A DNA stretch of 27,409 nt from Promethearchaeota archaeon (GTDB taxonomy: Archaea > Asgardarchaeota > Lokiarchaeia > Sigyniarchaeales > SOKP01), in assembly GCA_016926735.1 (NCBI GenBank), contig JAFGOA010000086.1, positions 1 to 27,409 of the forward strand, given 5' to 3'. The stretch's first letter is position 1, and each line of letters starts with the position of its first letter. Below are positions 3,359 through 27,409 of this stretch, piece after piece. The translations under genes and the position numbers were made by a program. The notes beneath the pieces are model-generated. The model had not been told where the DNA came from. It saw only the letters and a program-made list of their open reading frames with translations, and ran no database searches.

Positions 3359-6187
3359 CTAAGGTAATTCAATAAGACCAACATATGCTTGAGCTACTAA
3401 TAGTGCATCAATAATATTTATTGCACCATCATGATTTACATCAGCTTGTTCGGGATAAAATGATTGAGGATTCAAACCTACATAGTATTGTGCGATTAAT
3501 AATGCATCAATAATATCTACATTACCATCATGATTTACATCACCATTTTGCCATTCAGTAATAGATACTACAGTCACAGCAACAGAATCAGAATTTGTTT
3601 GACCATCAACATCAGACACAGTGCATATATAAGTATACGTACCTATTGAAAGCCCATCAACATTAATAGTTATAGAGTTTCCAGAGCTCCATGAACCAGA
3701 AGCAACTTGACTACCATCTCTTGTAATTGTATATGTTGTTGGATTGTCATCTGTAGCGATCCATGATAATGAATTTCCAGTTTCACCTTCTTGATATTCT
3801 ACATTTGCAGGTGAATTTATGGAAGGAATTTGGGTATCTTCTGCTTCTGCTACAACAAGTGCTAAATCAAATACAAGAGGCGAATTCCAATATATTGTAT
3901 GTTCACTTGAAGTCCAATCGGTATTGGTATTTGTATAGCATTTAGCATTAAATCTTGATGTCATTCGATTTTCATACATATTAGCACCACCTGGTAGAAT
4001 TCCTTTAGGTAATCCAGGTTTATTGTCAAGATTATAAATATTACTAAAGACAGCTGTTGTACTCTGTGTACCATAACCAGTAACCATGCATATTTGCATT
4101 GGATTTACACCTAAAATATAATTAAGATTTGATTTAACTATCTCAGAAACTTCAACATTATAATCATCTATTAAAATACTTCCAATTGCAATATCCATAG
4201 GAGTGTTTAAAATCATCATATTAGATCCCCACCAATATTGCCATGCTTCAAGTGAATTTTGCCAAGCTACCCTATTAGCTCTCTCAATATGAGTTCCGCG
4301 CCAATTTATAAATTTCGAGGTAAACCAATTAATAAATGTAGAATCTGGATTCTCAGAGCTCAAATATATCAATAATGCAGGAATTTCATTGTCACCAACA
4401 AAATGAGCACATTCAGGGTTATCTAAAGTGTCAGCAAATTGTTCATAATTATTGAGAAAATAATTATTATATACAAAATCTCCTGTAGCATAATAAAGAC
4501 AAGCAGCAGCAAACAATCTATCATCCCCATCATCTGAATCACCATATGGTCCTGAGGGAATTCCAATATAATTTGGATTATTTTCTAAATATGTCCAACC
4601 GAATTCTGCTGCATTAAGCATTTGATTTGCAAATGATTGATCATATTCCAAATAGAATTTATATGCTCGAGCTAAAATACCCACTGAATCTGCAGAAGAG
4701 GGCGTTGGTCGTACATTTATTTCTCCATTATCTCCAATATCTTTTATCGCTCGTGTTGAATCAGATGTATCATCGCCTATACTTTGAATACGATGATAAA
4801 AACCTCCACTATTCTCATCTTGACATTTTAATATGAACTCAAGTTCATGTCTTATCTCATCTAATAAATCTGGGATATTATTGCCGCTCTCTGGTATATT
4901 AAACTGATTATCTTGAAATTGTGATGGAAAAAGTTGATAAGCCCATAATAGATCTTGAATTGCTGTAGCGCCTGCATTCGTATATTTCCCAAAATCTCCT
5001 GCATCATACCATCCATTTGAAACATCTTTATATATATTTTGATATCCAGATTCTAATGGACAATTAAAATCATTAGAATGAAATGCTGTATGTGGATATT
5101 CAAGGGCATTTGTTGATATTAATTCTTCATTTGCTCTTTGATAATAAAAGTATCTAGCGGAATCTATTAATATATCATCATATATATCAGAACTGATAGT
5201 AAAAACAGGTGAATTATTAATTCCACTTGCTTGGACAGATATATAATAGTCACCTTCATCACTTAAAGCTGAAAAGTCTGCTCTTAATACTTTCTCTCCT
5301 GAGACCTCGGGATCATATTCAGAAACCAATGTAAGTGTTCCTGTAAATGACATTCTATTATCTATTGCATTTCTAACCTCAAAGATAGTACCAATATCAG
5401 CAGCTAATTCTTCTTCAAATCCACTTATTAAAGCATATTTTTCACCTTCAGGAACATATCCCACTTGATTTACTTTAATTGGTTCAAAGGATAATTCATT
5501 ATCAGGTGAAATTATATCTATATCATTGATCCAAAATTTTAATGGATTTGGGGGATAAATTGCAGGTCCTAATACTAAACATAAAATTTGATTAAGATTT
5601 ATTCCACTATCAAAATTAATTAGATTGTTTAAAGGAATTGTTACATGTTGCCACTCTGTTGTTAATGTAATATAATCTGTTATGGTTTTGGTTTGATCAA
5701 TGCTTTCCGTTCCCCTTTCATATACTTTATCTCTAACACCGATTATAAACTGTTCTCCTCCAGATGCACCCCTAATATTAAATTCTATTGTACCTCTTTC
5801 ATAATAAGGTTCAAGATTTATAGTTACCCATCCTGCTGGAGTAATTAATGCTGTCCACCATTCAGTTGATTGTTGAAGATTTACTCTCAAGGAAGGTTTT
5901 CCATTATAAGTCATTTCCCAATCTAATGGAAGAGAAGCTGAACTACTAGTCTCTAAATATCCGGAAGCATCACCAGCCCAACCTCCAGGATCAGTGTCCT
6001 CAAAAACTTGAAGTATCTGCAATTGTCGATATCCTTCTTCTGGAGAAGATTTTAAAGATATGCTATTTTTTGAGTCTATACTAATTGAATACATAAAGGA
6101 CATACTCATACTTAAAAAAAGAATCAAAATAAAGAAACTTAATTTTAATATTTCTTTATTTTTTAGATTATTATTTAATTTCAACAT
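3359..6187 (-). CDS. Secreted modular glycoside hydrolase family 9 (signal/TM - CBM30-like - CelD_N Ig - GH9 catalytic - Ig-like - type I-like dockerin)
   Basis: IKVNQVGY (Ig_CelD), YFYYQR, GWYDAGDFGKY (catalytic Asp pair) and SSEHTIYWNSPL (catalytic Glu). The N-terminal YNGKPSLRVNL..WW..GW..EFNIRG..RDKVYER..TTEWQHVTIPL segment resembles CBM30 of clostridial CelJ (from memory). C-terminal duplicated GDVNHDGNVDIIDALL / ADVNHDGAINIIDALL Ca-binding repeats. Confidence 0.93.
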   Translation of the reverse strand: MLKLNNNLKNKEILKLSFFILILFLSMSMSFMYSISIDSKNSISLKSSPEEGYRQLQILQVFEDTDPGGWAGDASGYLETSSSASLPLDWEMTYNGKPSLRVNLQQSTEWWTALITPAGWVTINLEPYYERGTIEFNIRGASGGEQFIIGVRDKVYERGTESIDQTKTITDYITLTTEWQHVTIPLNNLINFDSGINLNQILCLVLGPAIYPPNPLKFWINDIDIISPDNELSFEPIKVNQVGYVPEGEKYALISGFEEELAADIGTIFEVRNAIDNRMSFTGTLTLVSEYDPEVSGEKVLRADFSALSDEGDYYISVQASGINNSPVFTISSDIYDDILIDSARYFYYQRANEELISTNALEYPHTAFHSNDFNCPLESGYQNIYKDVSNGWYDAGDFGKYTNAGATAIQDLLWAYQLFPSQFQDNQFNIPESGNNIPDLLDEIRHELEFILKCQDENSGGFYHRIQSIGDDTSDSTRAIKDIGDNGEINVRPTPSSADSVGILARAYKFYLEYDQSFANQMLNAAEFGWTYLENNPNYIGIPSGPYGDSDDGDDRLFAAACLYYATGDFVYNNYFLNNYEQFADTLDNPECAHFVGDNEIPALLIYLSSENPDSTFINWFTSKFINWRGTHIERANRVAWQNSLEAWQYWWGSNMMILNTPMDIAIGSILIDDYNVEVSEIVKSNLNYILGVNPMQICMVTGYGTQSTTAVFSNIYNLDNKPGLPKGILPGGANMYENRMTSRFNAKCYTNTNTDWTSSEHTIYWNSPLVFDLALVVAEAEDTQIPSINSPANVEYQEGETGNSLSWIATDDNPTTYTITRDGSQVASGSWSSGNSITINVDGLSIGTYTYICTVSDVDGQTNSDSVAVTVVSITEWQNGDVNHDGNVDIIDALLIAQYYVGLNPQSFYPEQADVNHDGAINIIDALLVAQAYVGLIELP

Positions 6188-6910
6188 TTTTAATTCATTT
6201 TTTATTTTTCTTTTTAAAATAATTTCTAAAATAAGGATGTAAAATATACTAAATACAAAGTATATTATGTATTATAACTACAAAAATCGTATTTAAGCTT
6301 TTCCCAAATCTCCCATGACAAACTAGAAGAGTGATTTTTGAAGATATTTTCCTAAAAACATTAATATAATTAATTAAGATATTAAATAAATTAAATCATA
6401 TTATATAATCAATAGTTTACTAATATTTAATTCTTTTTTTTATTTAATGGATAGGTTATTAAGGGTTTTAGAATTCATCTAACATAATGATATTTATTCT
6501 CATATAAGAGAAGTTGCATGTGTACAAAATATTCAAAAATATTACATAATAATAACGATCAATGAAATTTGGTAAATTAATTGAAGGAATGATTGTGATA
6601 AATCAAATATTTTACCTTATAAAAATAGTTCGAAAACTACACCTCAAACCTTTTTAAATAGAAAAAAAAACTCAAATTAGAAGGAAAAATGTTATGGTTA
6701 TTAATTATAATCTATATAAAGAGTATTTTTTCTTCATTATCAAATATAAAAAGAGAATAACTAGTAATTTAATCCGAGAATAAAATTTTATGCAAAAAAA
6801 CCAATTTTCAATAATTTTGAATAGGGAATAAAAAATCACATCATTTCTAATCAAATAAAGGATTAAATACTGAAACAGCAAAAAATAGATATTAAAAGGT
6901 GTAAAAAAAA

Positions 6911-7090
6911 ATGCAAAAAGAATTAACAAAAGAAGAAATGGAAAAAATTAATGGTGAAGGAGGCGTAAGAATAATTTATACAAGTGGGAATGGAAATATT
7001 GTAATAAGCTATTTAGAATCAATTCAAAAATTCGTTTATGTTAATTTTTACACAGGACAGATAAAACTGATTGTGGAGCAGCATACATAG
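6911..7090 (+). CDS. Putative double-glycine-leader peptide precursor (bacteriocin-like), 59 aa; 3' end may be degraded
   Basis: MQKELTKEEMEKINGEGG-VRIIYTSGNGNIVISYLE... matches the ELxxEExxxIxGG-type leader. AGGTG SD-like site upstream. Immediately followed by a C39 remnant. Confidence 0.6.
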   Translation: MQKELTKEEMEKINGEGGVRIIYTSGNGNIVISYLESIQKFVYVNFYTGQIKLIVEQHT

Positions 7091-7347
7091 TAAGTATTAC
7101 CTTGCATTATGGATTAAAAAAACCTTTAACACAAATATTTGAACTTGCTAGAACAGATAAGAAAGGTATAGATATAATTGGTTTAATAAAATTAATAAAC
7201 TCATTAGGTTTTAATGCAAAATAAGTAAAAAAAGATCCCAGAGAACTTAATGAGACATTGGATTTACCAATAATTGATCATACTCTAAAAATTAAAATTA
7301 TTATTGCTGTTCCAACTGAGGGAATTATTAATATAACCTTCCCCTAA
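7038..7347 (+). pseudogene. Peptidase C39 domain remnant of a peptidase-containing ABC transporter (PCAT)
   Basis: MLIFTQ/(1-nt frameshift)/TDKTDCGAAYIVSITLHYGLKKPLTQIFELARTDKKGIDIIGLIKLINSLGFNAK*VKK...LPIIDH...KIIIAVPTEGII*. Shows the Q-x5-C-GAA, HYG, LGFxAK and LPxIxH motifs. In-frame TAA at 7222-7224, catalytic HYVV segment missing, no ABC domains follow. Confidence 0.85.
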
Positions 7348-7467
7348 ATTAGTGGGGAATTATTTGAAGAATAAATAGAATTTATATTTTATATTGTTAA
7401 GGATTAATGATACTCCATAATCATACTATTATTGAGAATTGACCAAAATTATTAAATTATTTAATTT

Positions 7468-7668
7468 TTAACATTTGTAATTTTTTTCTTCATTAATTGA
7501 ATTAGAACTCGATTCAGAATCAGTTTTTAATCCTTCAACTTCTATTGCATCGTCAATTAGCTTTGCCAATAATTCTTGTTTAGTAATTTTTTTTCCTTTT
7601 AGAATATAATGGGAAAGCAACTCGTCTAGTAATTTTTCATGTTTTTTATCGATTCTAAAGTTGCTCAT
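7468..7668 (-). CDS. Small putative DNA-binding protein (ribbon-helix-helix / VapB-like antitoxin), no adjacent toxin
   Basis: Short N-terminal strand (SNFRID) followed by two helices (KLLDELL...KKITKQELLAKLIDDA) and an acidic tail. Confidence 0.5.
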   Translation of the reverse strand: MSNFRIDKKHEKLLDELLSHYILKGKKITKQELLAKLIDDAIEVEGLKTDSESSSNSINEEKNYKC

Positions 7669-7877
7669 AGTAAAAATTCAGTATAATTTCTGTTTTTTAT
7701 TCAATAAACAATATTTTTTCTTAATAAATACTTTTTTAACCCTTTTTACTTGATTTTTTATAATTCAATAATTATGCACTTTACCAATAATTCATTTTAG
7801 TATTATTCCTTATTATAATTTATTAGTATCTTTTAAGATAAATTGAAAAATATTTTTGATAAATTAAGGTATGAAAT

Positions 7878-8282
7878 ATGGTAATATTAGGGTATTGTGG
7901 AGATCGATGTGATGTCTGTCCAAGATATATTGCAAGTCAAAAAAAAGGTATTGATGAATTGAAAAAAGTAGTAATATTATGGAAAAAAGCAGGATTTCGT
8001 AATGATATAGATAATCCAAATAATTTAATTTGTGATGGTTGTAATAAAGAAAAGGAATGTGCATATGATAATATTAAGCAATGTTGTATATCCAAAAATA
8101 TTGAAAATTGTGGTAATTGCAGAGATTATCCATGCATTTTAGTTATTAAAGCTTTTGAAAAAACAAGAGATATAGAAATAAAATGTTCTGAAATTTTAAA
8201 TCCAGATGACTTTAAAAGTTTAAAAACAGCATTTTTTCAAAAGAAAAAGTATCTAGATGATGAAAATAAAAAAAAGTTTTAG
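7878..8282 (+). CDS. DUF3795-like cysteine-rich metal-binding protein
   Basis: YCGDRCDVCP...CDGC...C...IKQCC...NCGNCRDYPC cysteine pattern. Confidence 0.85.
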   Translation: MVILGYCGDRCDVCPRYIASQKKGIDELKKVVILWKKAGFRNDIDNPNNLICDGCNKEKECAYDNIKQCCISKNIENCGNCRDYPCILVIKAFEKTRDIEIKCSEILNPDDFKSLKTAFFQKKKYLDDENKKKF

Positions 8283-8312
8283 GAGATGATTATATTAAAG
8301 AAAATAGTTGCT

Positions 8313-10616
8313 TTATCCAAATGTTTTCATTTTTGTAATTTCTGTTATATTCATTTTCTTTACCTTTCTAAATTGTAAAATCAACACGATAAACACAATA
8401 GCAAATATATTTAATCCAAAATAAATATAGCTTATTGGGTACATATAATATGAAATTCCCATCATTACATCACTCATCAAATCAAGCATTAAAATCGAAA
8501 TAATATTACCTAAAGAAATACCTATAGGGATCGAAATTACAAAATATAATAAAATTTCTTTGAGTATACTCTTTTTTATCTCAGAATTATATAATCCCAA
8601 TGCTTTCATATTAGCATAATCTTCAATGCGATATTCAATCAAATTTTTTACAATAATTCCAGAAATTAAAAGCCCAAATAAAGTAAAAATAATTCCAAAA
8701 GCAATAGTGAATAGATTAAACAATTCTGAAGACTCATTTAACATTTTTTCAACATCAACTTTTAGAATAACATTATCAACATACTCTAAATCCTCCACTT
8801 GAGCTAAAGCTTCAGAATTATTAGATGCAATTGTAAAATATACAGTATTTACCTTATTAGATTCTCCTAGAATTTTCTGAACACTCTCTAAATAGAAATA
8901 AATTGTACTTTCTGCAAAATCATTAACTACTCCCTTGATAGTGATTTTGTGTGACTCTAAAGATGTTTGATTTTTAACATAGATCGTTCCTCCTATCGCA
9001 AGGGAAAATTCTTTAAATATGTCTTTTGTTATATAACATTCTCCTTCATCTGTAATGGAACTACCACGTTCTAATTTAAAATTATGTAAGATCGAATCAT
9101 TTTCAAAAGCTATTACGCGTAAATATTCATTGAATTCACTTGTATTGTATTTATTAAATAAAATTCTATCTATTATTCCGAACTCATGATATTGTATACT
9201 TGAAAGATCGGTAAAATTATTATTTATAATATTTGTATCTTCATAATTCCATGTTGTTGCCATTCCATCCCATTTTTCAATCTGATTAACCTTATAATCC
9301 AGAGAATAGTTCACACTATCAGGTAAACTATAGGCGAATACTAGAAAACATGATGAAATAACTAACGCTAATGAAATAAATAATAAATGTATTTTTTTAC
9401 CAGAAATCCTTCTTATATTATAACTAGTAAATGGATGGATATTTTTCCTTATCTTTTTTATTATCTTTTCTATTAATGGTTCTTTCTCTAAAAATTTTGT
9501 TTCGTATTTTAATGATTGTTGTATATCCATTTTAAATGATTTCATAACAACTAAAAAAGTAATTAAAGTTGATAAAATAAGTGTTGCAATTCCTATAAAA
9601 AGAATATTCTGATATGAAAAGGACACACTGGGAAAAAATGGAATCCCAGTTAATGATGCAATAAATTGAGTAAAAGGGATACCTGATACAATACCTAGAA
9701 TTCCACCTAGTATTAAGGAAATTATAAATAATATTAGATTAAAAATCAAATAACTAAGAATAATTTCCTTTTTTGTTGCACCTAATCCTTGAAATACCGA
9801 GATTGATTTTAGATCGAATTCAATAAGGCGGTGCAATACTATAACGAGTACAAATAGAGACCCAATAATGAAAATCAAAGCGAAAATAAATAGAAATTGA
9901 CGATCTGATTTTTCATCCTCAATCATTATATTTATAAAAGGATTCTCTTTTTGACTAAGTATTTCTTGTATATATAATCCCAAATCTTCATTAATTTTTT
10001 CTTCAAATTCTTCTTGAGTTTTATCAGGATTTAATTTATAAAGAATTTCATTAATAAATGTTCCATTGTAGGGAATAAAATTATTATTCAAATAGTCCAA
10101 GCTAACATAAAGTATAGGAAAAGGTGTATAAGAAGGAAATGCTATGGATTCGATTAATGGAAAATACATAAATTCAGAGTTGAAACCAATATCTAGTATT
10201 TCTATATTCTTTTCTATTGATCCAAACTTAAGAGTTATATTTTCTCCTATTTTTATATTATGAGTACTTGCAAAAGCATATTCAAAACAATATTCATAAT
10301 CGAGTATTTCCTGCTTATTTTTATCAATTAGAGCATTAATATGGGATGTTTCAGAAGTATTCACTCCAACAATAAGACCATCATATTCATAACCTTTTAT
10401 GTCGTACTTCATATTCATAAATATTCTTAATTCATATTTATCCAAGTAATCTTTAGTAAGATTATTCAAAATCGGTTGGATTTCTGATATATTTGCTGGA
10501 TTTGTGTATATAAAACCGTCTGTAAAGTTAGTTAGTTTAATAGTCTCATCAAGTATTCTGTGTCTCGAATCTTGCATATCAAACATTAAACTTCCAAAAC
10601 CAATACTAAAAAGCAT
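8313..10616 (-). CDS. ABC transporter permease, FtsX/MacB-like with two FtsX domains; true start probably further upstream (~10703)
   Basis: Two extracytoplasmic domains each followed by 3 TMs, with GLGATKKEI and MKALGLYNSEI motifs. Lies directly downstream of a LolD-like ATPase. Confidence 0.9.
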   Translation of the reverse strand: MLFSIGFGSLMFDMQDSRHRILDETIKLTNFTDGFIYTNPANISEIQPILNNLTKDYLDKYELRIFMNMKYDIKGYEYDGLIVGVNTSETSHINALIDKNKQEILDYEYCFEYAFASTHNIKIGENITLKFGSIEKNIEILDIGFNSEFMYFPLIESIAFPSYTPFPILYVSLDYLNNNFIPYNGTFINEILYKLNPDKTQEEFEEKINEDLGLYIQEILSQKENPFINIMIEDEKSDRQFLFIFALIFIIGSLFVLVIVLHRLIEFDLKSISVFQGLGATKKEIILSYLIFNLILFIISLILGGILGIVSGIPFTQFIASLTGIPFFPSVSFSYQNILFIGIATLILSTLITFLVVMKSFKMDIQQSLKYETKFLEKEPLIEKIIKKIRKNIHPFTSYNIRRISGKKIHLLFISLALVISSCFLVFAYSLPDSVNYSLDYKVNQIEKWDGMATTWNYEDTNIINNNFTDLSSIQYHEFGIIDRILFNKYNTSEFNEYLRVIAFENDSILHNFKLERGSSITDEGECYITKDIFKEFSLAIGGTIYVKNQTSLESHKITIKGVVNDFAESTIYFYLESVQKILGESNKVNTVYFTIASNNSEALAQVEDLEYVDNVILKVDVEKMLNESSELFNLFTIAFGIIFTLFGLLISGIIVKNLIEYRIEDYANMKALGLYNSEIKKSILKEILLYFVISIPIGISLGNIISILMLDLMSDVMMGISYYMYPISYIYFGLNIFAIVFIVLILQFRKVKKMNITEITKMKTFG

Positions 10617-21315: not shown

Positions 21316-21478
21316 AAGAAACAATAAAAGATTAATAAAAACCTCATTAATTTAAATTTTCTATCAAATTTATTCCATCAGTTTTTTTTATTAATAAAAA
21401 TTAAATATTGATTCTTACATTTGGTGAATATTCTATATAAATTAAAAAAGAAAATAAACCAGAGGATTAAAGGATTTT

Positions 21479-21739
21479 ATGTCAGATTTAGAAATTTCAA
21501 AAGATATAAAAAAGAGAATTGAACTTGAAGCATATTATCTTTCTAAAAAGAATTTAACCTATAATGAATTATGTTGGATGTTAGCAGAGAAAATAATTCA
21601 ATCTCAAAGAGAACAAGTAGGAAGAATTGCAAAAGCAAAAATTCAAGAAAAAGCAGAAGAGATCTTTAATCATTCCTATAAATATGAAGATTTATGTTGG
21701 CAGATCGCTGAACTTATAGTAAAGGATGAAACTAAATGA
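21479..21739 (+). CDS. Hypothetical protein with two tandem DUF2934-like repeats
   Basis: I..EAYYLSKKNLTYNELCWMLAE / I.EKAEEIFNHSYKYEDLCWQIAE internal repeat. GAGG upstream. Confidence 0.75.
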   Translation: MSDLEISKDIKKRIELEAYYLSKKNLTYNELCWMLAEKIIQSQREQVGRIAKAKIQEKAEEIFNHSYKYEDLCWQIAELIVKDETK

Positions 21740-21952
21740 ATTAAATTACTTATCCCTTTTTTTTAAATTGAATCTAATATCCTAAGTTTTTTTACATTTT
21801 CTTTTGCCATATTATCGATTTTCAAAAATATTAAATATGATTTCTCTTATTTTGAATGTATCTAAGAAAAAAACCAATAATATAGCAAAAAGTATCGTTT
21901 TTTTATAATAATACTACAAAAAGGTATTAATTGAGAGAGTGAAAGATAAATT

Positions 21953-22168
21953 ATGGAGGTTATTCCTTTTAAAAAAGATATTCTTTTTTATTTAAGTAAG
22001 TTTATTGATGTAGATAAAAGTCAAAAAATCATCTATAATAATTATTATATCAAGGATTACGATTATGTTGTTAAAATTCCGTTTCCTACGATTGAAAAAG
22101 CTGATAATGATATAAAATTTGAGAAATTTGACCTTGTGAAATACACTTATCTACTCGATTATGAATAA
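21953..22168 (+). CDS. Hypothetical protein
   Basis: 71-codon ORF ending 11 bp before the next gene. No motif recognised. Confidence 0.55.
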   Translation: MEVIPFKKDILFYLSKFIDVDKSQKIIYNNYYIKDYDYVVKIPFPTIEKADNDIKFEKFDLVKYTYLLDYE

Positions 22169-22179
22169 AAGAATATAAC

Positions 22180-22542
22180 TTGAAAACATACTTTGAATGT
22201 AAAATGACTCAGAATAAAGAAGAAATACAGAGAGAATTGGAATGTTATACTAAAATTGTAAATCTTTTTTCAAATATAGATAAAGACCCAAATATAATCG
22301 AGCTTCATAAGGATAAAACAATCATAAAAATTATGAATTCATTAAAAAAACCTGAAAATGAAGATTGGTTAAAAAATGCATTAATAATTTTATTATCTCT
22401 TTTTGATGATACTCCTGCTGATTTATATAATAATCTTGGAATAAATGGAAAAAAGGTATCTAAAAAAGAAAAGAAGATCATTTTTTCAAAGATAAAAGAA
22501 GAATTCCTTTCAAAAGAAAAAAATGGAATATCAAATAAATAA
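22180..22542 (+). CDS. Hypothetical helical protein
   Basis: 120-codon ORF (TTG start, or ATG at 22204) with typical codon composition. No motif recognised. Confidence 0.7.
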   Translation: MKTYFECKMTQNKEEIQRELECYTKIVNLFSNIDKDPNIIELHKDKTIIKIMNSLKKPENEDWLKNALIILLSLFDDTPADLYNNLGINGKKVSKKEKKIIFSKIKEEFLSKEKNGISNK

Positions 22543-22618
22543 TTAAAAAAAAGCTAAAAAATCTGAAGAAAATATATAAAGAAATTATTTTAAAAAATAA
22601 AAAAATTAAATTAAAAAA

Positions 22619-22729
22619 TTATTTAAAAAGTTCATTTTCGATTTCTTCTACTAATTTAATCAAAGAATCTAAATTTTTATCAAAATCATTTAATTCTTTT
22701 TCAAACTCCTTATTCATTTTATAATTCAT
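22619..22729 (-). CDS. Small acidic amphipathic-helix protein (36 aa)
   Basis: MNYKMNKEFEKELNDFDKNLDSLIKLVEEIENELFK*, with heptad periodicity and an AAAAACTTATAAA BRE/TATA-like site about 50 bp upstream. Confidence 0.45.
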   Translation of the reverse strand: MNYKMNKEFEKELNDFDKNLDSLIKLVEEIENELFK

Positions 22730-22930
22730 CTTTTTGTCTTTTTGGTTTAAAAGATGAAATAATAATCTTAGTACCAATTTATAAGTTTTTATATTATTTC
22801 TATATATTCTTCTTTAGATCCTATGTTAATGAAAATTGGGAAAAAAAGGTAAATTGAATATCTATTTTAAATGAAAATTTAGTGAAGAAATTTAAATATC
22901 TTTAATCAAGATTGAATATAATATATATAT

Positions 22931-23425
22931 ATGGTATCATTTCATGACGCTATAATTGAATATCGGAACCAATTAAAGAAAGGGATAATTCAGAAAGCTT
23001 ATCGAGGATTAATGGAATATTTTGGATCGTTGAGATCTTATTTTAAAAATAAATATCCCGATTATGTTGTGTCTGGGAGTTTTTATTTTGGATATATGGA
23101 TATGACTTATTTTGCTGTTAATCCTCCTATACTAAAAGATCGAAAATTGAAAATTGCAATTGTTTTTTTACACGAGGAATTCAGGTTTGAAGTGTGGTTG
23201 GGAGGATATAATAAAACTATTCAGAAAGAATACTGGGATTTAGTCAGGGAAAGAGATTGGGATAAATATCACATTCCATCGAGTATAAAAGGAATTGATT
23301 CTATTGTGGAATATATTTTAGTTGATAATCCTGATTTTCGGGATTTAGATGCATTAACTGGGCAAATCGAAAGAGAAACAATTAATTTCATAAATGATGT
23401 TGAGGATTTCTTATCTCAATATTAA
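22931..23425 (+). CDS. Conserved hypothetical protein (resembles DUF7000 family)
   Basis: EYRNQLKKG.IQKAYRGLMEY...YFGYMDMTYF...LKIAIVFLH..FRFEVWL is recognised from memory as a widespread uncharacterised family. The family label is not verified. Confidence 0.75.
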   Translation: MVSFHDAIIEYRNQLKKGIIQKAYRGLMEYFGSLRSYFKNKYPDYVVSGSFYFGYMDMTYFAVNPPILKDRKLKIAIVFLHEEFRFEVWLGGYNKTIQKEYWDLVRERDWDKYHIPSSIKGIDSIVEYILVDNPDFRDLDALTGQIERETINFINDVEDFLSQY

Positions 23426-23457
23426 TATATTTCTTTTTCTCAATTTTTTAAGAATAA

Positions 23458-23895
23458 TCAAGGGTTCATTTGAAAAAAAGCCCAAGAGAAGATATAGATC
23501 GTTAATGAGTAAATTAAAATACCTACAACATTAGCAATAATCCCAATTATACAAAGTATAATTCCTACTTTCTTTGGTGTATTTTCAGCTTTTAATATAC
23601 CTAATATTCCAAAAATTAATCCAATTATATGAGAAGACACACCAAAAAACATTATAAAAATACTGCTAAGGTCAGCTTCATAACCTACATTTTTTCTTAA
23701 AAGATATACTATAAAACCAATAATTATTCCTACCGGTACTAAACTAAGTGATACTATTGAAAATTTAAAACTTTTTTTAGAATAAGAACCTATACCCTTT
23801 TTCATTGGAACAGCTTTTTGAATATTACTTCCACATAAAGGACAATATTTTTGACTTGTATCTTCTATATCTTCTCCACAATGTTCGCAATACAT
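23458..23895 (-). CDS. Zinc-ribbon membrane protein
   Basis: MYCEHCG...KYCPLCG N-terminus followed by three TM helices. Confidence 0.85.
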   Translation of the reverse strand: MYCEHCGEDIEDTSQKYCPLCGSNIQKAVPMKKGIGSYSKKSFKFSIVSLSLVPVGIIIGFIVYLLRKNVGYEADLSSIFIMFFGVSSHIIGLIFGILGILKAENTPKKVGIILCIIGIIANVVGILIYSLTIYIFSWAFFQMNP

Positions 23896-24141
23896 AATTT
23901 TTATTCGATCTAAAAATAAAATGATAGGTTTATATATTTAAAATAGGTGATAATATATTAATTTTGTTTATATTCCAATTCTTGATTTTTTTTATGGATT
24001 ATTTATTTTTAGAACACTTACTGGTATTTTAATATCGTTATTTATGTTAATTCATAGTTAATTACTATATACTTAAATTTGGACTTTTTTTTAAAAACTT
24101 TTAAAATAAAGATCTAATAATAATTTTTAGCGATCTTTTAA

Positions 24142-24345
24142 GGATTAGAGCGTTTGTATTCTATTAGAATTGCAGCTACACTTACAGGTGTTTGCTGTAA
24201 GATCTTGAGAAGATAGGATAAGAAAAGGGGATTTAATTATCATTTACCCTTAGGAATTAGGATAAGTAACTAATGGAAAATCAGAGAAATGGGAAATATC
24301 TTGGAATTATTTATAGCATAGAATTTTATATTCAGAGCGCAATGG
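24142..24345 (+). pseudogene. tnpA: Decayed IS607-family serine resolvase (TnpA) N-terminal fragment
   Basis: GLERLYSIRIAATLTGVCCKILRR*DKK.G is a MerR-like HTH with the conserved W replaced by TAG (24214-24216). After a frameshift, IIYSIEFY (24306-24329) differs from IIYSRVSS by one base at each of the four altered codons, at the expected spacing. Confidence 0.72.
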
Positions 24346-24425
24346 AAGAATCTTTCAAACTCTGGATAGTAATAACATTCTTCTCTTCTAAACTTTTTTT
24401 TTTCAAGGAAAAAATAAGATTTTTA

Positions 24426-24740
24426 ATGGAAAATAGATGCAAAATAACTGTTTTTTTAAAAAGGACCTATAATTGATTTTATTTAAGATTAATATATCTA
24501 TATATAATCTTTAATAGATCGAAGTCTTATAATCGGGGTTTGAATTTGAGGAAAATGCAGGATTCCTGACCATATATTACGAAATCCTTGATATAATGAA
24601 TATAAAATCTGCATATATATTCTATCCTTACAGAGATTAATTTTGGAGTCGAGGGGAATCGAATGAAAAATATATACATGGTATATACAGAACGTTAATT
24701 TTTTACCCTCAAGGTAAAAAAAATACTTTCCTCGATCTCT
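24426..24740. repeat. ~315-bp non-coding structured repeat, copy 1
   Basis: Aligns by eye to 27091-27409 in the same orientation, roughly 80% identical, nearly gapless, with shared hairpins. Confidence 0.9.
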
Positions 24741-25045
24741 AAGTCCAATAGAGTATAAAACTACAGTCATATCTCAGCATTTGGAAGAGAATATTACATA
24801 TTTGAGATAAAAAATCACATATAAATTGTATTTTTAATTCTCTTAGATTATTATTCAGAAATATATACAATTATTGATAACTAATCATTTAATTTTTTAA
24901 TTTTATGATATTTACCCATTTTTTCAATGCTTACTTTTAATTTTTTCTTGGATATGCCTTTTGAATTGGTTATTCTTAAAATTAATAAAGATGAAAATTT
25001 ATATTATTAATAAGAATGAATTAGAAAAATAAAAATTCATGAAAT

Positions 25046-25456
25046 ATGGATGAATTAAGAAAAAAAAGATATCGAGATAAAATTAATTATGTAACGGATT
25101 GTCTGAAATTATTATCAGTAAAACCAAAGAATGAATTAGAGAAATTTGGGATTTTTTATTTACTTCAAACCTCTATAGAGTCTATTATTGATTTAATTGC
25201 AATGTCTATTAAGGATTTAGGAATACCGATAAAAGATGATGAGAATAACATATTTGAATTTGTTAAAAAAAGAGAAATAAATCAAAAATTGGGAGAAGAC
25301 TTGAAAAAATTGAATGGTATGCGAAATATTATAGTCCATAGATACAATAGTATAGAAGAGGATATTATTTTAAACTCAGTTGTAGAGGCTAAAAATTTAT
25401 TAAAGAATTGGTTAAATATAATTGAAGAGTTGTTATTAGATTTTGATAAGGATTGA
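25046..25456 (+). CDS. hepT: HEPN (DUF86/HepT-like) ribonuclease toxin
   Basis: LQTSIESIIDL helix and the RNIIVHRY (R-x4-H-x-Y) active site. Overlaps the MNT gene. Confidence 0.9.
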   Translation: MDELRKKRYRDKINYVTDCLKLLSVKPKNELEKFGIFYLLQTSIESIIDLIAMSIKDLGIPIKDDENNIFEFVKKREINQKLGEDLKKLNGMRNIIVHRYNSIEEDIILNSVVEAKNLLKNWLNIIEELLLDFDKD

Positions 25457-25835
25457 AGAAATAAAGGAACGATTTAAATCAATAGCAAATAACCATGATA
25501 TTATTTTATATGGATCTGTAGTTAATAACAACAAACGACCGAATTCTGATATTGATATTGCTGTTATTTCATATCTAAAAAATAAAGAAGAATTAAAGAA
25601 ATTGCAATTTAATCTTTTTAGCTTAGCTTCTAGAAAATATGATATACGTGTATTTGAACTTTTACCAATATACATTCAGATCTCGATTATACAGAATTAT
25701 AAGGTGATTTTTGGCAATTTATTAGAAATTTCAGAATATTTTTATATTTATAGAAAGAAATGGGATGATTGTAAATATCGAATTCTTTCAAATCAATTTA
25801 AAAATTATCAAGAACGCCTCACACTAATGAAATAA
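25443..25835 (+). CDS. mntA: Minimal nucleotidyltransferase (MntA-like) antitoxin
   Basis: LYGS-x10-DID motif, third Asp in YDIRVF, and LP motif. TTG start overlapping the HEPN gene. Confidence 0.88.
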   Translation: MIRIEEIKERFKSIANNHDIILYGSVVNNNKRPNSDIDIAVISYLKNKEELKKLQFNLFSLASRKYDIRVFELLPIYIQISIIQNYKVIFGNLLEISEYFYIYRKKWDDCKYRILSNQFKNYQERLTLMK

Positions 25836-26053
25836 TTAGAAAATGTTCCAACAAAAAAAAATTACTCTCTTTTTTAATTCCCTTTGACAAAAAAAAATTT
25901 TAGATATCCTTTGGTCCATGATTTTAATTTATTAAAAAATAAATATAAAAAAATAAAAGTAACTCTGCATTACTAAAAAAAAAAAATAGTGAAAAATTGA
26001 AAGTAAAATTAGCAAAAATAAAAAAAAATAGAAACTTAAAGAAAAAAAAAAAA

Positions 26054-27001
26054 TTAGATATAATTACATCCAATATTGATTTGTGGATTTTGATCAAGTT
26101 CATGAATAATGGTTTTAATTAATATCCCAAACAAGTAAATACGTTCGGTTTTATTTTCATCACAATATTTCCGTGCAATTTTATATACATCATATGAGTC
26201 TTTAAGGGCGTTTCCAATTAGAGTTGGAGTTTTCATCATCAAAAGATAAAAGAAAAAGTGATGACTAAAAATACCTTCTTCTATTCCATTATAGTCTGTC
26301 ATCCAAGAAGAAAGAGATTTAGATGAAGTACTTATTACCATTACATTAGATCCTTTAAAATCATCAACAAAACCACCAGATTCACAAGATTCAACTAAAA
26401 TACTTATTGTTGCAGCTTCAAGTAGATCAATATATCGTACTAAATCACTTGAATATAAATTGTCTGAATCCTGATAATAGGTTGTATTTCCATTTAAACA
26501 TACACAAGAATCATCTATATCTTCGAGATACGCTCCATGTCCCCATAAAAAGAAAAATATATGGTCATTAGCATTTTCTATAGCATCTATTTCATCAAAT
26601 GTAATCCGTCCTTGAAAATTATCTTTATATTCGAGTATTAAATCATAATTACTTTCAGAAAAAGGATTATTTATATAGACTTTATACTTATCAATTGCTT
26701 TTTGATTTCCTGCATCAGATGCCCACATAAATACTGCAATTTTTCTTGTGGAATCATTTGGTGATTCTAAAGGTAAGATCGGCTCAGTGGGATTGGTATA
26801 TTCAGGATGATCAATAGGTAACTCTGAAGATATAGACAGCTCAGGGAGATTAGAATAGTCATTTTGTGGATCTTCAATAGATTCTGCTGAAAAATCTAAA
26901 GTACTATGGATGTTAGATGAAATTAAAAAAATTGCCATAAATATTGATAAAATCAAATAAGGATTTTTGGCTGATAATTTATTAGTTTTGATTTTTTGCA
27001 T
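26054..27001 (-). CDS. Secreted or membrane-anchored caspase-like cysteine peptidase (clan CD, C13/C14-like)
   Basis: N-terminal signal/TM, DHIFFFLWGHG (catalytic His-Gly), ILVESCESGGF (catalytic Cys) and G.FS..F helix. Confidence 0.85.
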   Translation of the reverse strand: MQKIKTNKLSAKNPYLILSIFMAIFLISSNIHSTLDFSAESIEDPQNDYSNLPELSISSELPIDHPEYTNPTEPILPLESPNDSTRKIAVFMWASDAGNQKAIDKYKVYINNPFSESNYDLILEYKDNFQGRITFDEIDAIENANDHIFFFLWGHGAYLEDIDDSCVCLNGNTTYYQDSDNLYSSDLVRYIDLLEAATISILVESCESGGFVDDFKGSNVMVISTSSKSLSSWMTDYNGIEEGIFSHHFFFYLLMMKTPTLIGNALKDSYDVYKIARKYCDENKTERIYLFGILIKTIIHELDQNPQINIGCNYI

Positions 27002-27090
27002 TTTTTATAAATAGCCTCATTATATTTATTTAGTCAAGGGTATATTATATATAAAGGTTTGAGGTGTACTTTTCGAACTATTTTTTTACT

Positions 27091-27409
27091 ATGGAAAATG
27101 GATGCAAAATAACGGTTTTTTTAAAAAAAAAAAACTATAATTTATTTTTTCCAAGATTAACTTATCTATATATATCATTTCTAATAGATAGAATTTACAT
27201 AATTGGTCATTAATATTAAGGAAAATATAGAATTCCTGACTATATGTTACAGAATCCTTGATATAACGAACATAGACTCTTCATATATACTCTAACTTTA
27301 CAGAAATTAACATTGGAGTCGTGGGGAATCGAACGACAAATATATACAGAGTATATACACCATGTTAATTTTTTACCTTCAGGGTAAAAAAATACTTTCC
27401 TCAGTCTCT
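27091..27409. repeat. ~315-bp non-coding structured repeat, copy 2 (runs off the window end)
   Basis: Direct-orientation homolog of 24426-24740. Confidence 0.9.

Follow-up and report, generated by a model that had tools for sequence, protein, structure and literature searches.

A repeated non-coding module carrying the 3′ end of tRNA-Ala(GGC), a candidate junction of tRNA-anchored gene cassettes in a Lokiarchaeia genome

Does a long non-coding repeat near the end of an archaeal contig encode a structured RNA, or does it mark the place where units of mobile DNA are joined? The question is raised by a window of 27,409 nucleotides (nt), which is the whole of contig JAFGOA010000086.1 (C117) in the Promethearchaeota archaeon assembly GCA_016926735.1 (Lokiarchaeia, Sigyniarchaeales; genome G000), where two similar stretches lie at 24426-24740 and 27091-27409. 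The initial annotation took them for two diverged copies of a structured non-coding RNA (ncRNA) of ~315 nt. That the element is non-coding, repeated, linked to mobile DNA and constrained in one block of ~85 nt holds up, whereas its reading as a structured RNA is not supported. With moderate confidence, the repeat is interpreted here as a non-coding, attachment (att)-type junction module of an integrase-less cassette island anchored at transfer RNA (tRNA) genes, and not as an RNA gene.

The repeat itself is real, and its unit is longer and its copies more numerous than first described. The two stretches had been reported as ~80% identical and gapless for over 200 nt, and the repeat search indeed returned a gapless block of 230 nt at 80% (24493-24722 against 27163-27392), together with 24451-24506 against 27119-27174 (79%) and 24426-24462 against 27091-27127 (95%). 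A search of the own genome with the element gave 27083-27409 at 80% identity and an E-value of 8.8e-80, so the resemblance between the copies is far beyond chance. The full unit extends from ~24398 to ~24865 and measures ~470-510 nt, the second copy being truncated by the contig end. Ten copies are known, namely five in G000 (C117:24398, C117:27083, C161:5481-5895, C159:6116-5753 and C159:342-1), four in the sister species G003, one of them truncated where its contig begins, and one in G001, also a sister species. Partial relatives in G000 consist of a left arm at C218:1854-2091 and a right arm at C133:6964-7164.

The copies in the window are co-oriented and lie 2,665-2,670 nt apart. Contigs C161 and C159 have 3′ ends that are reverse-complementary to each other, as a test with 40-mers showed (the coordinates give 87 nt). 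Based on this exact overlap, C161 runs into the reverse-complemented C159, and on the resulting scaffold three copies follow each other in the same direction at distances of ~4.3 and 5.8 kb. The end of C117 is likewise the end of the reverse-complemented C159 (last 40 nt tested; 64 nt by reading of the alignment), indicating that the contig end is an assembly break inside the repeat. Within the genome the copies are 70-84% alike and two of them pair best with copies of G003 (91% and 86%), which points to an old array.

All copies can be divided into the same parts. An X1 site of ~57 nt, with TTTTCCATGGAAAA-like and TTTTAATGGAAAAT boxes 21 nt apart followed by the 14-nt core TGCAAAATAACTGT, forms the left edge. 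In copy 1 it lies at 24398-24451 (+ strand), with a degenerate box 1, box 2 (TTTTTAATGGAAAAT) at 24420-24434 and the core at 24438-24451. It is followed by the X2 arm (24452-24643, +; ~190 nt), which opens with a promoter-like GGACCTATAATT..AAGATTAA..TATATATA motif, by the last 21 nt of tRNA-Ala(GGC) on the − strand (24644-24664, two mismatches to the gene), by a stretch with a 6-nt linker, the palindrome HP1, an 11-nt spacer and the palindrome HP2 (24665-24721), and by the Y arm (24722-24865, +; ~150 nt or more), which matches C133:6964-7164 at 75% (BLAST). In copy 2, a motif called M2 (27046-27088, +), with a TATA-like box and a conserved 23-mer, takes the place of box 1. Next come an X1 site at 27091-27116 (+) with box 2 and the core TGCAAAATAACGGT (27103-27116), the X2 arm at 27117-27313 (+; from the repeat search and alignment), the tRNA-Ala 3′ fragment at 27314-27334 (−; one mismatch) and finally, at 27335-27409, the linker, HP1, HP2 and the first 18 nt of the Y arm, after which the contig ends.

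Both local palindromes had been spotted in the initial annotation and were confirmed. HP1 (24671-24687 and 27341-27357) reads TATATAC-n3-GTATATA, with 7-bp arms and a 3-nt loop, and HP2 (24699-24721 and 27369-27391) reads TTTTTTACC-n5-GGTAAAAAA, with 9-bp arms, a 5-nt loop and T6-T7 runs on both strands. In a pattern scan they were confined to copies of the element, plus one HP2 after a tRNA-Ser gene on C133. Conservation is uneven along the module. The mean pairwise identity of the ten copies is 91% in the tRNA fragment, 88% in the linker, HP1 and spacer and 92% in HP2, against 75% in X1, 75% and 67% in the two halves of X2 (the least conserved part) and 76% and 72% in those of the Y arm. Hence, the centre of ~85 nt is constrained and the arms drift.

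Part of this centre derives from a tRNA gene. The ‘invariant GGGGAAT’ of the initial annotation turns out, on sequence comparison, to be the T-arm of tRNA-Ala(GGC) in reverse complement, and a 21-nt fragment of this tRNA (positions 53-73, antisense) is present in all ten copies, with a divergence of up to three mismatches in 21. The intact gene was found by ARAGORN on C218 (complement 2071-2144) and has, by reading, the G3:U70 pair that a tRNA-Ala should have. A left arm consisting of M2, X1 and X2 abuts its 3′ end, and BLAST aligned the DNA downstream of it (C218:1854-2091) with the homologous X2 arm of copy 1 at 68%. In the copies, the homology to this locus covers ~230 nt of the downstream flank plus the last 21 nt of the gene and ends inside the T-stem, at position 52/53, with HP1 replacing the rest of the tRNA. 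Across this border, 33 of 33 nt agree between the copy on C161 and C218 (12 nt of flank and 21 nt of gene end). As described for tRNA-gene islands (PMC4383910; bioRxiv 10.1101/2020.12.28.424599), a tRNA tail with a homology break inside the gene is a classical mark of site-specific integration at tRNA genes. A split-tRNA or tRNA-like reading of the element was rejected by eye, there being neither a 5′ strand of the T-stem nor an acceptor partner.

The DNA next to the intact tRNA-Ala gene is variable on the side to which the copies relate. Synteny is kept in G001 and G002, relatives of the same genus, on the other flank (S8 peptidase, DNA methylase, RpiA, PurE), and on the 3′ side G000, G001 and G002 have unrelated DNA. 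In G002, a Y arm, 1.8 kb of DNA and an X arm adjoining the tRNA-Ala are present, and in G001, HP1 and HP2 stand directly after the intact tRNA-Ala. The latter gene, within the stretch G001:C88 8360-8520, is a tRNA-Ala(GGC) with an 18-nt insert in the D-arm region and was mis-called as tRNA-Cys by ARAGORN. After it, HP1, a second GTTCGATT motif and HP2 follow each other, an order unlike that of the junction copies.

A further tRNA gene carries a sister island with an empty counterpart. On C133, a stretch of 3.64 kb (6963-10602) begins exactly at the end of tRNA-Ser(CGA) with a hairpin (HP-like), HP2 and a Y arm, and continues with a CitMHS transporter gene, an X1 site and a PIN gene. This stretch is missing in G001, G002 and G003, where the RagA gene lies ~20-75 nt after the tRNA; the empty site concerns this tRNA-Ser(CGA) island only. 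ARAGORN also predicts a second, intron-bearing tRNA-Ala(ggc) at C30:7243-7345. Its first ~20 nt are the same as those of the tRNA-Ser(CGA) on C133, so this anticodon call may be wrong.

Besides the tRNA genes, the X1 core is the other place at which the arrangement of the DNA changes. An iterated nhmmer search found 26 X1 sites in G000, with co-oriented arrays on C38, C85, C158, C161 and C168, and X1 arrays are present in G001 too. The PIN unit (89% over 1,018 nt) is part of the tRNA-Ser island in G000 and sits between other units in G001, while the GH5 unit (95%) has different upstream units in these two genomes. In the close relative G003, contig C306 corresponds to C161:2436-3898 (92%) until, inside TG(C/T)AAAATAACTGTTTT, the match passes to another junction copy; contig C420 corresponds to the Y arm and the HepT/MNT genes (94.8%) and next to a different part of the scaffold, with divergence setting in at GTAAAATAACTGT; and contig C413 departs from C161 at a box-less core 3′ of the Y arm. 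Four switch points could be assigned a position, in each case in or at the core, and the sequence shared there measures 13-17 nt.

The flanks of the core were also compared. Core-like sites were listed in G000 and in 26 stretches of G001-G003, giving 88 sites within two mismatches, about half of which are chance matches in unrelated sequence. By hand count (a regular-expression tally is off by one or two sites, with the C161/C159 overlap doubled and two X2 flanks missed), a left flank with two boxes is joined to a right flank of type Z in 26 cases, X2 in 4 and A in 4; a left flank with M2 and box 2 is joined to these in 0, 2 and 1 cases, and a box-less left flank in 4, 1 and 2 cases, respectively. 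Eight of the nine combinations thus meet at the core. The invariance of the core is partly by construction, as the core was the search query, but the free assortment of the flanks is not. In four copies (C161 and three more) a second, box-less core follows the Y arm, which makes these copies look like gene-less units of ~490-510 nt.

Two further properties of the left edge were observed. Box 1 and box 2 each contain an ATG, the two being in frame at a constant distance of 21 nt (e.g., C161:2395-2456; window 24398-24454). They could open a mini-ORF (open reading frame) of 10-35 codons (MEK..LMENGCKITV..), the alternatives being helical phasing of protein-binding boxes or chance. M2 consists of TATAAA or TTAAAAA, followed by the near-invariant 23-mer GGTTTGAGGTGTACTTTTCGAAC and a T-run. 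It has 22 copies within three mismatches in G000, three of which directly precede X1 sites, and it resembles a promoter with operator common to the members of a regulon. Other places of M2 include a reverse copy in the window (6618-6660, −) and C1:16049, 18697, 22504 and 23279.

The distribution of the element is narrow. A total of 61 genomes were searched, comprising G000, the three of the same genus (G001-G003) with the remainder drawn from the family, order and class. At E <= 0.001, 13 of the 61 genomes had a match of some kind, and full-length copies were confined to the one genus. Exact-pattern scans for the element had no matches in viral contigs or in metagenome contigs and, in a collection of genome contigs, retrieved only two contigs of G003 that were already among the copies found. 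A blastn search of the element against phages and plasmids gave no match. An unrelated salt-marsh metagenome contig joins the M2 side of copy 2 (27091) to the X1 of copy 1 (24420) with 14 other letters in between; only a small share of its words match, and it may represent another arrangement of the module in a relative.

Is the repeat an RNA gene? As initially noted, no ORF is shared: all ten copies have 2-17 stops in each frame, and a 90-codon ORF at 24498-24770 (−), without a match in Pfam, is not conserved in the other copies. The view that stems are kept while loops vary applies to the two nearly invariant palindromes and not to the other stems. Of the base pairs in these palindromes, six of seven in HP1 and six of nine in HP2 never vary and therefore hold no covariation information. 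RNAalifold on nine copies (324 columns) gave −18.6 kcal/mol with a covariation term of −0.71 for the + strand, and −11.9 kcal/mol with a term of +1.37 for the − strand, with a compensatory change in only two pairs per strand. The five helices proposed initially (35 pairs) are 90.8% paired in the copies versus 90.7% in shuffles, 275 of 500 shuffles being as high, and their covariation score is 0.070 versus 0.066 in shuffles, with 170 of 500 as high. For the proposed pseudoknot between GGGGAAT and ATTCCT, none of the six pairs has a double change. Single-sequence folding is weak (z-scores of −1.8 and −0.8). Rfam gave no match at the gathering score in the window and a best E-value of 0.69, far below gathering, in a permissive search of 24300-24950, and ARAGORN called no gene in the window. 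A multi-domain RNA under structural selection is not borne out by these results, although the covariation tests rest on 9-10 copies and have low power, so that they mean no support rather than proof of absence. With regard to transcription, no run on record as RNA contains the stretch at window 24200-25500, and of the two metatranscriptome runs from the source's study, one had no matching contig and the other a single one, with a partial match of 18-19 nt.

If the repeat is a junction module, as favoured here, its arrangement could have arisen as follows. Small units without an integrase, with toxin-antitoxin pairs, transporters and enzymes as their cargo, would be stacked at the 3′ ends of tRNA genes by site-specific recombination. 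Each entry would rebuild the tRNA and leave the displaced tRNA tail between the arms of the incoming and the resident unit, so that repeated entry would result in co-oriented P-core-P′ junctions, i.e., the repeats. A second exchange point may be the X1 core of 14 nt, which forms part of the left edge of the copies; there, units could be excised, put in a new order and traded between arrays. The conserved centre of 85 nt would be the binding place of the recombinase and its helpers, and HP2, with its T-runs on both strands, probably stops transcription between units. For this scheme we infer the site-specific chemistry, the enzyme and the direction of events, as well as the terminator and promoter roles.

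A candidate enzyme may be sought among the recombinases of the genome. The one protein with a PF00589 domain in G000 is XerA according to NCBIfam (240 bits, cut-off 220); the integron-integrase model TIGR02249 gives it 85.6 bits, compared to a cut-off of 265. The relatives have one Xer-like protein per genome and, in addition, two weak fragments. PF00239 is found in three small serine recombinases on other contigs. Inverted arms of at least 6 nt occur in 10 of the 26 X1 sites, seven of them with a 6-nt spacer, compared to 60 of 1040 shuffles. In a second arm type, (C)GTGAAA...TTTCAC(G), the spacers are different. XerA/dif sites are described as inverted arms around a 6-bp spacer, with the cuts at the spacer borders (PMC2958812, PMC3646895). 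The arms of X1 measure 7 nt versus 11 nt for dif (PMC2958812), and sites with an X2- or A-type right flank are without a right arm. Since some X1 sites have inverted arms with a 6-nt spacer and XerA is the sole tyrosine recombinase found, the host XerA is a fair hypothesis for the enzyme, and only a hypothesis; it is equally possible that a virus or plasmid from outside the bin supplies the enzyme in trans.

Several results weigh against the junction module and its proposed origin. The single PF00589 protein is encoded on contig C228, off the contigs with arrays, and no recombinase-like ORF was found among the array ORFs scanned with Pfam, permissive Pfam and PHROGs, a negative that holds for a 238-contig assembly from which a contig may be missing. 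Inside the C133 island there is no repeat of at least 10 nt of the tRNA-Ser 3′ end. HP1 and HP2 stand after intact, sense tRNAs in two cases (tRNA-Ser in G000; tRNA-Ala on G001:C88), yet beside the antisense fragment in the junctions, and because of this orientation puzzle, the simple P-O-P′ model does not account for the arrangement. No excised circle or alternative joint was seen in four sequencing runs. Switch points with 13-17 nt in common could arise by microhomology-mediated events. Finally, the array is old, judging from the divergence of its copies, with no sign of recent movement of the junction module itself. A casposon-like model with terminal inverted repeats and target-site duplications, which would explain the orientation puzzle, was tried and rejected, as no inverted second end was found in G000 and all copies are co-oriented.

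Some of these points would suit a passive boundary module, an explanation that is considered unlikely. A promoter/terminator ‘insulator’ would have been duplicated with its neighbouring DNA and kept for transcription isolation, the tRNA fragment would be a functionless old scar, and re-ordering would result from homologous or microhomology recombination. No recombinase is present in cis and the copies are old, HP2 has T-runs on both strands, the motif that starts X2 recurs at the ends of ordinary X1 units just upstream of cargo genes, and the TATA-type motif of M2 stands before three copies, all of which an insulator would share. However, the common sequence of 13-17 nt at the switch points is short for homologous recombination, and the flank types assort almost freely at one fixed core. 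Moreover, the tRNA-Ser insertion sits exactly at the gene end, and the best-conserved part of the module includes the tRNA fragment (91%), which a terminator does not need. The two TATA-like elements could also be read as promoters of a cassette-borne ncRNA, for which our expectation is low. The X2 motif or M2 would drive a + strand RNA of ~200-300 nt, antisense over 21-33 nt to the 3′ end and trailer of tRNA-Ala(GGC), ending at the T-run before HP2 and acting on pre-tRNA-Ala or guiding recombination much as bridge or omega RNAs do. Such an RNA would fit the four copies that appear to be gene-less units between two X1 cores, the TATA-like motifs upstream, the conserved 85-nt centre, one compensatory change in HP2 (ACC/GGT to ATC/GAT) and one G-U-compatible change on the + strand. 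It is at odds with the covariation (not beyond shuffles on either strand), the weak folding z-scores, the Rfam result and a tRNA fragment that drifts like a scar, with up to 3 of 21 positions mismatched. An omegaRNA-like scaffold, as suggested initially, finds no partner either, since no TnpB, IscB or IS110-type gene adjoins any copy in the Pfam scans.

The last explanation, that of a transposon end or a miniature inverted-repeat transposable element (MITE), i.e., a non-autonomous element copying itself to new sites, is very improbable and largely refuted. It would be in keeping with a multi-copy, non-coding, AT-rich element of one genus only at whose copies the assembly breaks. On the other hand, no terminal inverted repeats beyond AT-rich noise are found between the X and Y arms. 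The copies are 70-84% alike and not near-identical, they are co-oriented in arrays and not scattered, their positions are conserved between G000 and G003, and the Y1 transposase model (PF01797) has no match in G000.

The genes between the copies are those of accessory units. Between the two copies in the window lies a toxin-antitoxin pair according to Pfam (25046-25835, +), consisting of a HepT-like RNase (25046-25456, PF01934, E 1.9e-18) and its nucleotidyltransferase (MNT) partner (25443-25835, PF01909, E 4.2e-12). It is followed by a gene on the − strand (26054-27001) for a protein of 315 amino acids with a peptidase C13 (legumain/caspase-like) domain (PF01650, E 9.3e-8), which is absent at the corresponding place in G003:C420. 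On the C161-C159 scaffold, the cargo between the copies includes a PIN/MazE pair, unknown ORFs, a response regulator and a P-type ATPase. The X1 arrays carry catalase, ferritin, a GH5 cellulase with dockerin (C38), GNAT, ParE, VapBC, PIN/MazE and many unknown genes. This cargo is typical of islands. In a cassette array of G001 (C103, reverse strand, ~7930-10430), an insertion sequence with a DDE_Tnp_1 transposase stands just after an X1 site; this insertion sequence is multi-copy in G000 (C93, C147, C213).

To the left of copy 1, the window region 21400-24400 (ferredoxin, DUF7000, zinc-ribbon protein) is spread over three contigs in G003, and only paralogue-like matches of 70-75% are obtained in G001 and G002. 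Based on this, the variable region may begin well left of copy 1. Elsewhere in the window, an ORF for 942 amino acids (3359-6187, −) has an internal repeat (3377-3450 and 3476-3549, spacing 99 nt) that by eye resembles the paired calcium-binding repeats of dockerins. The assembly as a whole measures 3.88 Mb with a G+C content of 26%. Introns in 19 of its 52 tRNAs predicted by ARAGORN, together with genes for a Gtr1/RagA GTPase and ribosomal protein S25e nearby, mark the genome as archaeal and Asgard-like.

As an RNA gene, the repeat is not supported; as a view of cassette exchange in Asgard archaea, it is moderately interesting. The genome has a tRNA-anchored island and further arrays in which toxin-antitoxin, stress and carbohydrate-active units lie between conserved non-coding sites, and these units are re-ordered between sister species at a 14-nt core without a visible dedicated recombinase. 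If the exchange is site-specific, this would be a simple and testable route of gene capture in an Asgard lineage. For annotation, the lesson is that a recombination junction should be considered before an RNA gene when a long conserved non-coding repeat has a tRNA tail. A more far-reaching proposal is put forward only tentatively, namely that this Loki-type Asgard genus may run an undescribed gene-cassette system, similar to integrons or dif modules and without an integron integrase. Exchange would take place at the 14-nt core TGCAAAATAACTGT after two ATGGAAAA boxes, possibly by XerA, and arrays would be seeded at tRNA 3′ ends. The 0.5-kb element would then be a gene-less cassette or leader derived from the tRNA-Ala attachment site, which might yield an RNA antisense to the 3′ end of tRNA-Ala.

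How does the module compare to known systems? The omega RNAs of TnpB/IscB and the bridge RNAs of IS110 are guide or scaffold RNAs of mobile elements. The present element resembles them in being non-coding, a few hundred nucleotides long, repeated and associated with mobile DNA; it differs in having no such nuclease or recombinase gene beside its copies, no covariation and no Rfam match. For Asgard archaea, integrase-bearing elements with short attachment motifs and attC-type integrons are described (PMC11529989, PMC9668308, PMC8813620). No description of the junction module was found in the literature searched on Asgard mobile elements, tRNA islands, integrons and Xer/dif.

Serial islands at tRNA and tmRNA genes with displaced tRNA 3′ fragments are described by Islander (PMC4383910), and the tycheposon islands of Prochlorococcus are a further example (bioRxiv 10.1101/2020.12.28.424599). 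Like these, the arrays studied here have a partial 3′ copy of a tRNA at unit boundaries and an intact tRNA at the edge beside core genes, with tandem units of which the older are pushed inward, integrase-less remnants and extra partial tRNAs inside, and accessory and defence-type cargo. Unlike these, the repeat measures ~0.5 kb and has long arms and two palindromes instead of a tRNA piece of 20-40 nt, and the units are only 2.7-5.8 kb. In contrast to classical tRNA islands, no integrase apart from XerA was found anywhere in the genome. Also, a second, tRNA-independent core of 14 nt punctuates arrays on at least five other contigs, and the host is an Asgard archaeon.

Archaeal integrons and clusters of attC sites lacking the integrase IntI (CALINs) are said to be enriched in Asgardarchaeota (PMC9668308). 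The likeness lies in co-oriented cassettes of one or two genes that are rich in toxin-antitoxin systems, with gene-less cassettes as well, and in an order that differs between relatives and breaks at a short conserved site; as in CALINs, no integrase is found beside the array. In contrast to integrons, G000 has no IntI, as the TIGR02249 score of its XerA shows (85.6 versus 265), the cassettes seem to carry their own promoter-like module, and the genes are on either strand. Unlike attC, X1 is without R″/R′ boxes, a GTTRRRY box on either strand or an imperfect palindrome of 55-140 nt, as judged by eye on the listed sites, and the spacer of its palindrome is only 6 nt.

Finally, the dif modules of Acinetobacter plasmids (PMC13141974, PMC6449649, PMC12907356) offer a comparison. 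As in these modules, accessory units, often toxin-antitoxin systems, are bounded here by short sites, some of which have inverted arms and a 6-nt spacer. They are shuffled between replicons without a dedicated recombinase gene, the host Xer being presumed, and XerA is the sole tyrosine recombinase here. IMEX (integrative mobile elements exploiting Xer) are a related Xer-dependent kind of element. The X1 sites differ from dif modules in being all co-oriented, whereas pdif sites generally alternate in orientation. Clear inverted arms are present in only 10 of the 26 X1 sites. A further difference is that the cassette system proposed here would be archaeal and chromosomal.

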